Positions 26,177 to 30,007 of a stretch of 64,000 bases of DNA are shown piece after piece (position 1 is the stretch's first letter; each line of letters starts with the position of its first letter). Below the pieces are notes generated by a model that made no database searches, was not told the DNA's origin, and worked only from the letters and a program-made list of their open reading frames with translations. The stretch comes from an uncultured Gemmatimonadaceae bacterium (lineage in GTDB: Bacteria > Gemmatimonadota > Gemmatimonadetes > Longimicrobiales > Gaopeijiaceae), in the NCBI GenBank assembly GCA_964519125.1, contig CAZFIS010000001.1:3825-67824 (forward strand), read 5' to 3'. The translations under genes and the position numbers were made by a program.

Positions 26177-29100
26177 TCAGGCCGGGGGATCACCACTGCT
26201 TCCGGTGTCCTCGATCTTCTCCAGCAGAGACGGTTTCTTGTCGCCTCCACCCTCCTCCGACGCGCCGCGTGGCTCGGCTCCGACGTGTGGCAGAGGGGCG
26301 TCGGTCGTCTGACGCGACGCGTCCTCCTCGGAGATCTCGGGCTCTCGGAGCTCCGGGGGAGGCGATGCCGTCACTGGAGGTTCGGGCAGCTTCGGCCCCG
26401 GGGCAGGGAGTGCCTCTGCAGGCGGCCCGGGCTCTTCCGGCTTCGGCGACGGCGGTCGCGCTTCCGGGGCGTCGGGGGTGGCTTCCCGGGCGGGGGGGCG
26501 CGGGAGCTCAGGCTCCTTCGGGGGTGCGGCGGGCTCGTCGGCAGGGGCTCCCCGATTTCGCGGGACCTTCACGCCGGGTGGGGCCCCCTCGCCCGAAGCC
26601 GTGCCCTTCTTCGGGAGGGTCTCTTCCCGCGGCGCCACGCCTCCGTCCCCGGAAGGAACCTCGTCCGACGGGAGGCCCGGATCGGGCACCGACCGCCCGG
26701 CGGAGCCGGCTCCTGCCGCCGCTGCCGCAGCGCCCGCCGCGGCGAGGCCCCCGGCCTGGTCCGGAGGCCGGGGGCTACCGGCGTCCCGACCGACCGCGCC
26801 GGTACCGGCGGTTGGGGCGGTTGGGGCGGGCGGCGTGGGGGCTTCCTTCGGAGCCATGCCGGAGGCTCTTCCCGTGGTGGCACCTCTTCTCTCCACGGGG
26901 GCGGCTCCCGATTCCTTCCGCCCGGCGGCGGGCTTCTCCGTCCCGCCTGCACCGGCGGGTTCGGTGACGGGTGCCGTGGGCTGCCCGCCGGCCCCTGCCG
27001 CTGTCCCGGTGCCTGCCTGTCCGCCGGCCCGGGCGGCCGTTCCTGCCGCGGGCCCGGCACCCGCTGCAGCGGGTGCGGCGGCCTGTCCCGCTCCTGCCGC
27101 GCCGGCGCCGCCGCCCTGGGCCGGTCCTCCGGCGGAGGCGTCGTCCTTCGAGGCTTCCCCACCCGGGCTCGCTCCCGCTGGCCCGGCTCCCGTGGCGGCG
27201 GCCTCCTTCGCGCCCTTCTTGCCTGCCGGCTTCGCCTTCTCTCGGGCGGACGGCTTGCCGCCGTGCTTCGCGACTTCCGCTTCCACGATGGACTCCGCGC
27301 TCGCCACGTCCGCTCGGGCCGCCTCGGTCTGGGCGTTGGCCACGTCGACGAGCGAGCGGGCTTCCTGGATCATCTTCGTTCCCTGGTCGCGCTTGGCGGT
27401 CGCGTTCCGTTCGGCCTCTTCGGTCTTCGCTCGGACCTCCCCGGAGGCTTTCGAGACCGACTGCTGGAGCGCGTCGGCCTGCGCGCGAGCCGCGGCCACG
27501 GGAGCCGACGCGTCTCTTCCGGCCGCATCAGCCTCGGGGCGCGGACGGGCGATGGAAGCGAGTGCGTCCGCCACCAGAGTGTCCATGCCGTTCCGGGAGT
27601 CGCTCAGGTGCGCCTGAGGCCGCTTCGAGGCCCGCTCGCCTTCCTCGGCGAGCGTCTGTGCGTGCTGGCGCACACCCTGCAGGTCCGTGGTCGCCGCGTC
27701 GATGCCGGCGGCCACTGAAGCTCTCGCCAGGGAGCCCGCGCCGATCGGAGCGGTGGCATCCACGGCGGGTTGGAAGTCGTCGCGCAGTCCGGCTGTGTTC
27801 CGGGAAGCGACGCTGCCCTGCGACTCCAGCTCCTGGCGCGCGCTCCGTGCTTCCGTCTGCCACTGCGTCACCTGCGCGCCGATTCCCTCGGTCGCGGCGG
27901 AGGCTTCCTCCGCGATCGCCTGGGCGCGGCTCGACTGATCGGCGAGCCGCATCATCGCCGCCAGCTCGGGTTCACCGGCGCGAGCCGCCGCGCCCGGCAC
28001 GATGCCGTCGAGGTCGGCTCCGTACCCGGAGAGGGCGTCGTCCGCCGACGCGAGCTGCTCGTCGACCAGGGCCTGACCGCGCTCCACGTAGCTCGTGAGC
28101 TGCTGCTTGGCCGCGTCGACGAGGGCGAACAGGGCATTCGCGGGGCGGCCGGCCTGGGTCCGCAGGTCGGTGATCTGGTTGCGAACGACGCCGACCGAGC
28201 CCGTGAGCTTGTCGCTGCACTGTTGCACCTGGGTCCTCGCGTCCGAGATCCACTGGACGACGGTGGCCTCGTGGCCAGCGATCGCCGCCTGAATCGGCGT
28301 CAGGGCGCGGTCCTTGAGCGTCAGGACCTCGTCGCGGACCTGATCCACCTTCTCGCGCGGCTGCACGGACGCCACGAAATCGTCTCGCGCCGATCGCACG
28401 CCGGTCAGAAGTCGGTCCGGCTGGGCCTTGACCGTGTCCACCGCTCCGTGCATCTGCGTCGACACCTCGCCCATGCGAGCGTCGGCCTGCTCCAGCGCCT
28501 GCCGGACCTTCTCCAGCGCCTGGACGACCGCTGCGATCGCCGTGCGGACCGCTTCCACAACCCGGGCGAGCACGGGCCGGAGCGCCTCCACGCCCAACGC
28601 GGCCTGCTCGAGCAGCTCAGTGGAGGTCGAGCCCGCCGTCTCGACCCCGGCCCGGGCCGTGGCCACGGAGACCTTGATGCCCGGGATGCTGGCCTTCACG
28701 CCCATGAACAGGGCGCGCGCCGCCATCAACGCCGGCGCGCGCCCCATGTACTTCGTGCAGACGGCGATGGCGTTGTCGCACTGCTGGTCGGCCTGGCTCA
28801 ACTCGATGTCCGCCTGGTCCAGGGCGTCCTCGGCCTGCGTCACGAACTGGGGGATGCGGGCCTGCACGTCCCGGATGACGCCGAGGGCTGCGTCGATCTT
28901 CTCCGACACGGGAGTGAAGCGTTCGGGGAGCACGCCGAGCTTCGCTTCCAGGTCGTCGATCTCTCCCGTGAGCTGGGCGAGAAGTCCCTTGAGACCGTCG
29001 ATCGCGGCATCGACGGTGGCGGCGGATTCCTCCAGGCACTGGGTCATCGCGGCGAAGATCTCCTCGAGCTTTCCGATCTCCGCGTCGACTCCGGCGAGGG

Positions 29101-30007
29101 TGGTGTCGATGGCCTGCCCGACCGCCTCGATCTTCCCGGCGATGCGCTCGAAGGTCGCCTGAGCCTGAAGCACCGGGAGCGCGATGGCCGCCGCGATCTC
29201 GTGGGCCCGGGCTTCGAGGGTGTCCATCTGCTGTGTCAGAGGCTGGAGCGCCTTGGCGACCGCCCCCAGCGCGGCCTCCGCCCGGTCCAGTGCGGCGTCC
29301 ACCAGGGACGTGAGCTCGCCGAGGATGCTGTCGACCCGGTCGCGCACTCCCTGCACGACCCCCTCGATCTCGCCGAGGGTCGCCTCCACCTCGGCCTTGA
29401 CCTGATCGGCGCCCGTCCGAAGACGCTCGCGGAGCCCGGCGATCTCTCCGCGGACGCTCTCGATCAGTTTCGTGGCGGCGGCAGGGCTCGTTCCGAATTG
29501 GGCGGCCTCTTGTGCCTGCCGGACGTGATCGCTGAGGGCCACAGAGCCTCGGGCGAGATCCTGCATGGTCTGGAGGGCCTGCTCGATCCGCGCCGGGAAG
29601 CCAGAGAAGTCGGGCCGGATCGCGGCGAGCCGACCCGGAACGCCGGCTGCCACCGTGACCGCCGTCTGGACCTCACCGGTCAGTCCCGCGAGCTCCCGTG
29701 TGGCCCCCGCGATGCCAGGGCCCACGTCGCCGAGCGAAGATACCACGCCCGTCAGATCCGCCTGAAGCGCGACCAGGGCGGCGGAGAGTTGCCCGAGCGC
29801 GGCTCCCGGATCGATCTGGTCGGGCAGGGTACCCAACTGGTCGACGACATCCTGCAACTGCCCCATGACGGACGTGATCGTCGTCGAGGCTTCCGTGACC
29901 GCCTCGGAGAGCTTCGTCTTCAGGGTAGCCGAGGCGTCGGACACGGCCTGGGTGACCTGGGCCGTGCCGTCGGTGAGGACGGCCTGAGCGTGGGACGGGA
30001 ACTTCAC
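26177..30007 (-). CDS. Giant (~1276 aa) alpha-helical repeat protein with a ~360-aa Ala/Gly/Pro-rich low-complexity C-terminal tail; unknown function
   Basis: Track ORF 26177-30256 is trimmed to the GTG at 30007 (MKFPSHAQAVLTDG...), which overlaps the upstream stop (GTGA). The part upstream of this GTG is Arg-rich junk that overlaps the 217-aa gene. The first ~915 aa are A/L/Q/E/T/V-rich with heptad-like periodicity and almost no Pro. The tail (26180-27262) is AGAGPAAGTAARAGG... followed by PKEPELPRPPAREATPDAPEARPPSPKPEEPGPP. Confidence 0.75.
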   Translation of the reverse strand: MKFPSHAQAVLTDGTAQVTQAVSDASATLKTKLSEAVTEASTTITSVMGQLQDVVDQLGTLPDQIDPGAALGQLSAALVALQADLTGVVSSLGDVGPGIAGATRELAGLTGEVQTAVTVAAGVPGRLAAIRPDFSGFPARIEQALQTMQDLARGSVALSDHVRQAQEAAQFGTSPAAATKLIESVRGEIAGLRERLRTGADQVKAEVEATLGEIEGVVQGVRDRVDSILGELTSLVDAALDRAEAALGAVAKALQPLTQQMDTLEARAHEIAAAIALPVLQAQATFERIAGKIEAVGQAIDTTLAGVDAEIGKLEEIFAAMTQCLEESAATVDAAIDGLKGLLAQLTGEIDDLEAKLGVLPERFTPVSEKIDAALGVIRDVQARIPQFVTQAEDALDQADIELSQADQQCDNAIAVCTKYMGRAPALMAARALFMGVKASIPGIKVSVATARAGVETAGSTSTELLEQAALGVEALRPVLARVVEAVRTAIAAVVQALEKVRQALEQADARMGEVSTQMHGAVDTVKAQPDRLLTGVRSARDDFVASVQPREKVDQVRDEVLTLKDRALTPIQAAIAGHEATVVQWISDARTQVQQCSDKLTGSVGVVRNQITDLRTQAGRPANALFALVDAAKQQLTSYVERGQALVDEQLASADDALSGYGADLDGIVPGAAARAGEPELAAMMRLADQSSRAQAIAEEASAATEGIGAQVTQWQTEARSARQELESQGSVASRNTAGLRDDFQPAVDATAPIGAGSLARASVAAGIDAATTDLQGVRQHAQTLAEEGERASKRPQAHLSDSRNGMDTLVADALASIARPRPEADAAGRDASAPVAAARAQADALQQSVSKASGEVRAKTEEAERNATAKRDQGTKMIQEARSLVDVANAQTEAARADVASAESIVEAEVAKHGGKPSAREKAKPAGKKGAKEAAATGAGPAGASPGGEASKDDASAGGPAQGGGAGAAGAGQAAAPAAAGAGPAAGTAARAGGQAGTGTAAGAGGQPTAPVTEPAGAGGTEKPAAGRKESGAAPVERRGATTGRASGMAPKEAPTPPAPTAPTAGTGAVGRDAGSPRPPDQAGGLAAAGAAAAAAGAGSAGRSVPDPGLPSDEVPSGDGGVAPREETLPKKGTASGEGAPPGVKVPRNRGAPADEPAAPPKEPELPRPPAREATPDAPEARPPSPKPEEPGPPAEALPAPGPKLPEPPVTASPPPELREPEISEEDASRQTTDAPLPHVGAEPRGASEEGGGDKKPSLLEKIEDTGSSGDPPA

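Follow-up and report, generated by a model that had tools for sequence, protein, structure and literature searches.

The window described here is a 64,000-nucleotide stretch from an uncultured Gemmatimonadaceae bacterium (assembly GCA_964519125.1, contig CAZFIS010000001.1, positions 3,825 to 67,824), and it carries a complete type VI secretion system (T6SS) cluster together with a divergently transcribed pair of genes. The larger gene, BIG, encodes a protein of 1,276 aa with a long helical part followed by a low-complexity tail, and the smaller, up217, encodes a protein of 217 aa and lies directly upstream of it (Table 1). Comparison of homologous loci shows that, judged by gene neighbourhood and divergence, BIG and up217 are a conserved two-gene module of one T6SS lineage.

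The BIG/up217 gene pair and its linkage to T6SS clusters

BIG is a real gene. In the list of open reading frames (ORFs) its longest possible extent is 26177..30256 on the minus strand, and the start is placed at the GTG at 30007, which shares the sequence GTGA with the TGA stop of the upstream ORF. For a metagenome contig that is 99.94% identical, the independent gene call of the Joint Genome Institute (JGI) likewise gives 1,276 aa, the homologues begin alike with MKF or MQF at the N-terminus, and the best homologue matches reach E = 1e-170. The helical part (residues 1-915) has GC1/2/3 values of 0.75/0.49/0.88, matching those of other window genes, and the long antisense ORFs in this stretch of 70-74% GC do not have the codon signature of the window genes. 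In the tail the GC3 of 0.76 is uninformative because Ala/Gly/Pro codons mask the signal. The reading frame of the tail is nonetheless kept relative to the closest relative, L021, with indels of 3n and ~46% identity, and a comparable tail in every long homologue gives a second line of support for it.

A homologue of up217, belonging to a family of ~210 aa, is found immediately 5' of BIG in every locus in which upstream sequence is present, and by the GTGA overlap the two genes are translationally coupled, which we count as stoichiometric coupling. A profile search with up217 recovers 108 clusters, including cultured Oxalobacteraceae (Janthinobacterium sp. HH01 Jab_1c15620, Rugamonas, Duganella, Massilia forsythiae and Herminiimonas); every named entry is annotated as 'hypothetical protein', and the exact window sequence is also present in public collections under that label. 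No match to up217 was found in Pfam, NCBIfam, PHROG or PDB. In an AlphaFold2 (AF2) model aa 1-100 form an alpha/beta domain predicted with confidence (pLDDT about 90), followed by a linker and by C-terminal helices of low confidence; a Foldseek search of PDB with this model finds nothing similar (best E = 3.6), and hhalign finds no homology between the up217 C-terminus and BIG (probability 0.6%). The known T6SS adaptors (DUF4123, DUF1795/Eag and DUF2169) were considered for up217 and rejected, there being no such domain by Pfam, NCBIfam or PHROG and no fold match.

Among loci with enough flanking sequence, the pair adjoins core T6SS genes in 19, in four arrangements. It follows TssK-L-M-A in L001 and L025; it precedes TssB-C-Hcp-E-F-G-ClpV, with 0-2 variable genes between, in L010, L012, L015, L016, L018, L019, L020, L035, L038 and L039; it is divergent from tssB in L026-L029 and L034; and it is divergent from clpV in the window and L021. 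Apparently all four fit an ancestral position of the pair between tssA and tssB; cargo effectors usually sit after vgrG or PAAR genes. The adjacency spans two Burkholderiales families as well as the window's own lineage, and this recurrent coding within or at the edge of core clusters across taxa is what, operationally, characterizes a T6SS-associated gene (TAG). In the cultured Janthinobacterium sp. HH01 the counterpart of the pair is Jab_1c15620/30, beside T6SS core genes; the HH01 genome paper lists Jab_1c15620 and Jab_1c15630 as hypothetical, directly before a 'smaller T6SS cluster', Jab_1c15640-15710 (PMC3566124). A preliminary description of BIG, made from the letters of the window, had implied a link to the T6SS, and with synteny across more than 40 loci that link is now strong.

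BIG and up217 also diverge in step with the T6SS core genes, as far as pairwise identities tell. Spearman correlations of divergence are 0.63 for BIG against TssC and 0.75 for BIG against up217. Between L015 and L020 the identities are 84% for TssF, 71% for TssE, 78% for up217 and 67% for BIG, and between L016 and L019 they are 65% for TssF, 60% for TssG, 49% for up217 and 40% for BIG. No conserved downstream gene that would be a candidate immunity gene is present beside BIG across the loci examined.

Table 1. Coordinates of the BIG/up217 pair, parts of BIG and adjoining features in the window
Feature	Position	Strand	Basis or remark
BIG, full gene for the 1,276-aa protein	26177..30007	-	Stop 26177-26179, GTG start 30007
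Helical domain of BIG, aa 1-917	27257..30007	-	AF2 model; hydrophobic periodicity; conserved domain length
Most conserved block of BIG, aa ~405-445: QCDNAIAVCTKYM-GRAP-ALMAARALFMGVKASIPGIK	28673..28795	-	Alignments A1, A2, A3
Junction motif of BIG, aa 897-917: ARADVASAESIVEAEVAKHGG	27257..27319	-	End of folded part
Low-complexity tail of BIG, aa 918-1276	26180..27256	-	Ala/Gly-rich, then Pro/Glu/Lys-rich
up217, 217-aa partner gene	30004..30657	-	Directly upstream of BIG, GTGA overlap
Complete T6SS cluster	30891..51559	+	Divergent from the BIG/up217 pair; Pfam and NCBIfam scans
511-aa ORF downstream of BIG	24550..26085	-	Co-directional; module membership doubtful

Architecture of BIG and conservation of its family

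Residues 1-915 of BIG consist of 20% Ala, 9% Val, 9% Leu and 8% Gln and are also rich in Glu and Thr. The preliminary description, whose quoted peptide strings are all present in BIG, recognized this A/L/Q/E/T/V-richness correctly and slightly overstated the case in calling the region nearly Pro-free, as it contains 28 prolines (3.1%). The helical part is amphipathic, with a hydrophobic periodicity of 3.6 residues that lies ~5 standard deviations above shuffled sequences (aa 1-600), and AF2, run on a 24-sequence alignment, returns an all-helical model (pLDDT 82, pTM 0.41); both agree with the long helical bundle or coiled coil proposed earlier. The same description spoke of helical repeats, which the searches do not bear out: self-BLAST finds no discrete internal repeats, and profile comparison of segment against segment shows no more self-similarity than the weak level usual in coiled coils (hhalign probability 80-94%).

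In the model, N-terminal helices (aa 1-171) are followed by the longest helix, of 246 residues (aa 175-420), which is separated by the sole tight turn (aa 421-426) from the returning helices at aa 427-667, with C-terminal helices at aa 679-914. The most conserved block of the protein holds this predicted turn together with two invariant cysteines (C410 and C417), and the highest identity to L021, 77%, is found over aa 340-560, spanning the block. Because of the AF2 helix lengths and the position of the turn, we infer that the block forms the apex of an antiparallel coiled-coil hairpin ~35 nm long, a geometry read from the AF2 secondary structure alone. The hydrophobic stretch GRAPALMAARALFMGVK... 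corresponds to aa 421-454, and this tip segment has a Kyte-Doolittle (KD) score of 1.31 and includes Arg and Lys. No transmembrane-grade segment is present in BIG, the maximum KD 19-mer being 1.49, and no signal peptide was found, both as noted at the outset.

The helical part gives way to the tail at aa 917/918 (nt ~27257), directly after the conserved sequence ...AEVAKHGG. The tail, of ~360 residues, consists of 23% Ala, 17% Gly and 17% Pro, with just 6% bulky hydrophobic residues, and is presumably disordered, in keeping with the earlier assessment of its composition; the suggestion that it spans the envelope finds no export signal or other evidence in its favour. A possible short C-terminal motif, SLLEKIED, is present in the BIG tail, and across the family no universal C-terminal docking motif was found, such a motif being limited to some clades.

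BIG belongs, by its recovery in sequence searches, to a rare and unnamed family. A word-indexed homologue search was swamped by low-complexity words and gave 6, then 12 relatives, mostly fragments. A hidden Markov model (HMM) search of 1.84 billion representative proteins (50%-identity clusters) identifies 29 representatives with E-values below 1e-30 and 52 below 1e-10, beyond which there are generic coiled-coil proteins only, and genome and metagenome scans contributed 33 further BIG loci. A tblastn search of plasmids gave no match. Source annotations of relatives, such as DivIVA and MlaD, are compositional only.

Family members occur in a long form of about 1,170-1,530 aa and in a split form, in which an ORF of ~700 aa is followed by a second ORF with the remaining helical part and the tail. 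The bacterium of L012 (Burkholderiaceae RE-1, 1.7-Mb chromosome; 9338-14150) has kept this T6SS with the pair in split form, and there the second ORF has a long (EKE)n/(EA)n repeat tail. The N-terminus is conserved family-wide, and the family core is LPxxFxPV...ELDQAxxxCDxAIxxCT(K/R)(Y/H)MxxAPxLxxARxLFxGVKxxxPG, with its two invariant cysteines, the hairpin-tip motif of which can be shortened to QCDxAIxxCTK..AP.L.AR.LF.GVK..PG. A junction motif, ...ARxDxxxAExIVxAEVxKHGG (core AEVxKHGG), directly precedes the tail in nearly all long forms and is present in the second ORF of split forms.

Identity between clades is just 24-40%, yet members vary very little in where the apex lies (aa 422±15) and where the helical part ends (aa 932±22, range 882-961, n=23), and this conservation of rod length suggests a geometry-like constraint. 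Tail length is variable (323±110 aa, range 249-595), with a tail always present in long forms. Its composition differs by lineage, being Ala/Gly/Pro in the window and Ala/Thr/Asp with AKPKADIP repeats in Janthinobacterium, and other tails have EKE repeats or hyper-acidic sequence.

No Pfam or NCBIfam model covers the family, and the apparent matches do not withstand comparison among members. Pfam PF04513 (Baculo_PEP_C), with a cutoff of 38 bits, reaches 49.1 bits at aa 15-118 of the window protein, 25.6 bits at aa 266-359 of the relative P0001 and 46.8 bits at aa 508-608 of P0002; these regions do not correspond, and the match is therefore compositional and not homologous. Pfam PF01442 (Apolipoprotein A1/A4/E) reaches 29.4 bits against a gathering threshold of 90, NCBIfam gives sub-threshold coiled-coil families only, and searches of PDB sequences return spike HR1, ApoA-I and similar noise. 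A tape-measure assignment by PHROG was also rejected: among 24 members, 1-6 match each of seven different tape-measure PHROGs, in differing regions, and six members match the SbcC-like phrog_77, so that the similarity is compositional only. Foldseek searches with the BIG model find UmbC, MukB, SMC5/6, JetC and PrgA in PDB and weak viral tape-measure or SMC-like matches in BFVD; because all TM-scores are about 0.1, the fold class, as modelled, is a long antiparallel coiled coil and nothing more specific.

A likeness to alpha-pore-forming toxins, raised in the preliminary description, was not sustained: there is no transmembrane-grade hydrophobic hairpin, as would be expected of a ClyA/Hbl/YaxAB- or colicin-type toxin, and no such toxin is among the Foldseek PDB matches. 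SMC/Rad50/MukB proteins were set aside since Pfam and NCBIfam show no ATPase head or hinge and the likeness is limited to the coiled coil, as was TagA/TsmA, the ImpA_N match being absent from BIG and up217. With Pfam, NCBIfam and PHROG, neither BIG nor up217 shows a toxin, enzyme, PAAR, Rhs or adaptor domain. The view that BIG has no assignable family thus holds across Pfam, NCBIfam, PHROG, PDB and Foldseek, which give coiled-coil noise only. A search of the literature for a T6SS with a helical or coiled-coil protein of this type gave nothing relevant to the BIG family, and a 2026 review of T6SS accessory genes lists nothing resembling it (PMC13584744).

Other genes of the T6SS cluster and its flanks

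The T6SS cluster of the window is ordered ClpV, VgrG, a 260-aa MORN-like protein, a DUF4280 PAAR-like protein, a SPOR protein and a TssJ-like lipoprotein, followed by TssK, L and M, a short TssA, TssB, C, Hcp, and TssE, F and G; the relative L021 has the same layout. TssA is 388 aa in length and of the short class, with an ImpA_N match of 6.5e-35. Within 35551-36716 (+), the 260-aa protein after VgrG has repeats that are MORN/YwqK-like by eye, and its sole family match is a weak one to the LIC20035 adhesin. It is followed by the DUF4280/IglG-like PAAR-like protein and then by the SPOR-domain protein (36720-37397), and by domain content the VgrG/260-aa/PAAR-like/SPOR group resembles a set of spike, adaptor and peptidoglycan-binding components. 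A 154-aa ORF with the lipobox TLSGC (37394-37858, +) lies after the SPOR gene and ahead of tssK and is probably the TssJ of the cluster; the equivalent 154-aa gene of L021 has no Pfam match recorded.

The membrane-complex genes (37859-44159, +) are divergent, with TssM (1,395 aa) matching IcmF-related_N only, and TssK matches the VasE profile in part only. In the 2013 annotation of HH01 several genes of the equivalent T6SS cluster are labelled 'hypothetical'. Directly past tssG (51477-56805, +) are genes for a 1,095-aa protein with weak cNMP-binding and TLC-transporter matches and for a 701-aa HAMP protein. In HH01, too, a gene labelled 'cyclic nucleotide-binding' lies close to that for ImpA in the T6SS cluster, and a gene of the cNMP-binding type may be a conserved regulatory accessory of this cluster.

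On the other side of the pair, the 511-aa ORF downstream of BIG lies in a region of lower GC content (0.65 over the surrounding 2 kb), and the encoded protein has an acidic run, DDDEDEDDEDW, at its C-terminus. Pfam, NCBIfam and PHROG give no match for this ORF, which is not kept beside BIG in other loci, as a conserved partner or immunity gene would be; it may be a lineage-specific T6SS cargo gene. In L015 (14763-17855) an Anthrax_toxA-like adenylate cyclase of 410 aa and a 568-aa unknown gene are situated between BIG and tssB, and the cyclase hints at eukaryote-directed cargo in this T6SS lineage. Nothing convincing was found around the BIG operon in the way of a sigma-54 or sigma-70 promoter or a terminator. 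The left flank (1873-24509) is ordinary chromosomal DNA, encoding a TPR protein, a tricorn-type protease, GH53, M14 and M1 peptidases, an MtnA-like IF-2B protein and a class II aldolase.

Possible roles of the module and comparison with known systems

The reading that we favour, tentatively, gives BIG and up217 the role of a non-enzymatic accessory scaffold, or of a firing coordinator, in a T6SS with a short TssA. BIG would be a cytoplasmic, non-enzymatic rod, in which the helix at aa 175-420 runs to the turn at 421-426 and returns as 427-667 to form the antiparallel coiled coil of ~35 nm, with the N-terminal (aa 1-171) and C-terminal (aa 679-914) helices near the rod base. The conserved hairpin tip would be a docking surface for a conserved T6SS component, up217 would bind or cap the end of the rod opposite the tip, and the disordered tail of ~360 residues could act as a flexible tether or spacer. 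As a TAG-type structural factor the module would help the sheath and baseplate to assemble, take position or remain stable, where TssA is short and the known stabilisers TagA, TagB and TagJ are lacking. In T6SSs with a short TssA, stabilisation is known to depend on separate cytoplasmic proteins (TagB, TagJ), and for some subgroups none is known (PMC7896307). The accessory reading is favoured because there are no enzyme, toxin, adaptor, PAAR or Rhs features and no immunity-type gene, because rod length and apex are conserved, and because the module appears to be inherited with the T6SS cluster and lies among the core genes, ancestrally (as it seems) between tssA and tssB.

Several observations weigh against this interpretation. 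Conserved synteny outside T6SS loci, the finding that the preliminary description considered adverse to a T6SS connection, is seen in three orphan lineages only, in which T6SS core genes are absent within 10 kb of the pair. These are L033, L023/L024 and a single syntenic locus of Polaromonas/Acidovorax, which was sampled six times. The orphan pairs have ordinary metabolic and regulatory genes as neighbours, and the BIG closest to theirs, that of L025, lies inside a T6SS cluster. BIG evolves faster than any other gene of the cluster, which would suit a secreted substrate too, and in some loci variable genes, including the toxin-like adenylate cyclase, lie between BIG and tssB, so that the BIG-tssB junction collects cargo genes as well. 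The module is absent from well-studied T6SSs and is therefore not generally required. The hairpin geometry depends on one AF2 model with a pTM of 0.41, and the docking partner, cytoplasmic location and stabiliser role are what we infer from sequence and model.

The position at core genes and the co-divergence favour an accessory component at least as much as they do a secreted T6SS substrate, the main rival role, which we regard as possible if rather unlikely and in which BIG would be a large cargo effector or translocator-like helical protein and up217 its dedicated chaperone or adaptor. BIG would then ride the VgrG/PAAR spike, its mildly hydrophobic hairpin tip would engage the target membrane, and the absence of an immunity gene would mean eukaryotic targets. 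A small gene translationally coupled to a large one is the usual adaptor-effector layout, and the rapid evolution of BIG with its hypervariable tail, the orphan copies away from T6SS clusters, the lack of a signal peptide, the eukaryote-directed, toxin-like cyclase that adjoins BIG in sister clusters, and the position of the window pair next to clpV-vgrG all fit such a role. However, most loci place the pair beside tssB or tssA and not vgrG, PAAR or hcp, neither protein has a known effector marker, adaptor or toxin domain, the tip is too weakly hydrophobic for a transmembrane hairpin (KD 1.3, with Arg and Lys), Foldseek shows no pore-forming toxin match, and BIG co-diverges with core genes, whereas typical effectors swap between clusters. 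A more elaborate version, which appears quite improbable, has BIG fired with the T6SS tube or spike as a tape-measure-like or translocator-like helical hairpin in the Hcp lumen or on the tip, its conserved apex inserting into the target membrane and up217 serving as loading chaperone.

It is also improbable, though not to the same degree, that BIG and up217 constitute a T6SS-independent coiled-coil system (cytoskeletal, polar-landmark or envelope-stress) merely co-located or co-regulated with the T6SS. Bacterial landmark proteins typically consist of a coiled coil and an acidic or Pro-rich disordered region, a combination that BIG shares, and the orphan pairs occupy three ordinary chromosomal neighbourhoods; but the adjacency to T6SS genes recurs in all four layouts and across the two Burkholderiales families and the window lineage, both proteins co-diverge with the T6SS core, and the orphans' closest kin (L025) sit inside a T6SS cluster. 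The least probable of these proposals is that BIG is tape-measure-like, located in the Hcp tube lumen or otherwise setting length, and is expelled on firing, with up217 as counterpart of the chaperone gene that precedes phage tape-measure genes. Several members have matches to 'tail length tape measure' profiles of PHROG, the best with an E-value of 5e-15; BIG is long and helical, and its length is conserved; the small gene lies directly upstream as in phage tail modules; and the weak Foldseek matches to viral models include tape-measure proteins. The PHROG matches are, however, inconsistent in family and region and occur alongside SbcC/SMC coiled coils, the fold-match TM-scores are about 0.1, the AF2 model is a hairpin and not an extended helix, and a disordered tail of 250-600 aa is atypical of tape measures; moreover, T6SS sheaths have no regulated length, and these systems have no known tape measure (PMC5511345).

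The manner, place and duration of T6SS assembly and firing are determined by accessory genes, and several short-TssA lineages have no known partner that would stabilise or anchor the machine. BIG/up217 is a previously unlisted, lineage-wide T6SS-linked pair, known in kind and new in family and architecture, and it is unusually built: a long disordered tail follows a coiled-coil strut whose length is conserved (~35 nm, should the model hold) and whose conserved apex contains Cys. If structural, the module would be a new class of T6SS scaffold; if secreted, BIG would count as a helical substrate of unusual size, and its chaperone would belong to a new family; and if a fired hairpin inserts into the target membrane, it would be a T6SS 'translocon', a component class new to type VI secretion. 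The pair is present in culturable, genetically tractable Janthinobacterium, Duganella, Massilia and Rugamonas, in which both genes are annotated as 'hypothetical protein', and its role is therefore directly testable.

In comparison with known proteins, BIG resembles the tape measures of phages and extracellular contractile injection systems (eCIS) in being long, alpha-helical, A/Q/T/V-rich and length-conserved, with a small upstream gene and weak PHROG matches, and differs from them in the inconsistency of those matches, the predicted hairpin and the large disordered tail. With SMC, MukB, Rad50/SbcC, JetC, the UmbC stalk and PrgA, which include its best Foldseek and PHROG matches, it shares an arm-like hairpin of conserved length, and its conserved Cys-containing apex is reminiscent of a hinge or hook, but it has no ATPase head, hinge domain or CxxC hook. 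Amphipathic-helix composition is shared with apolipoprotein A-I/E, apolipophorin-III, perilipin and Baculo_PEP_C, whereas the regions matched by Baculo_PEP_C are non-homologous among members and the Apolipoprotein score is far below threshold.

Some T6SS cargo effectors have dedicated adaptors, as VasX has VasW and TseL has Tap-1 (DUF4123). BIG is similar to the VasX/VasW type in being large, free of a signal peptide and T6SS-linked, in having a small co-transcribed gene before it, and in occurring as orphan copies. It differs in that neither it nor up217 has a DUF4123, DUF1795 or DUF2169 domain, a toxin domain, a transmembrane or colicin-like segment or an immunity gene, and in that the pair lies beside tssA or tssB and not vgrG.

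The closest parallel to the proposed role is with TagA/TsmA, TagB/TsmB and TagJ, which are T6SS sheath stabilisers or 'firing coordinators' partnering TssA (PMC7896307; PMC13584744). BIG does not have the ImpA_N domain that defines TagA. TagB and TagJ are ~30-kDa cytoplasmic partners that bind short TssA, whereas BIG exceeds them in size roughly 4-5 times and, as a giant coiled coil, has a disordered tail and an obligatory small partner; up217 is about 23 kDa. As proposed here, BIG would be like all three in being accessory, non-enzymatic, cytoplasmic, coded among core genes and specific to a T6SS lineage, and the role of stabiliser is vacant in the T6SS of the window, where TssA is short and the known partners are all missing.

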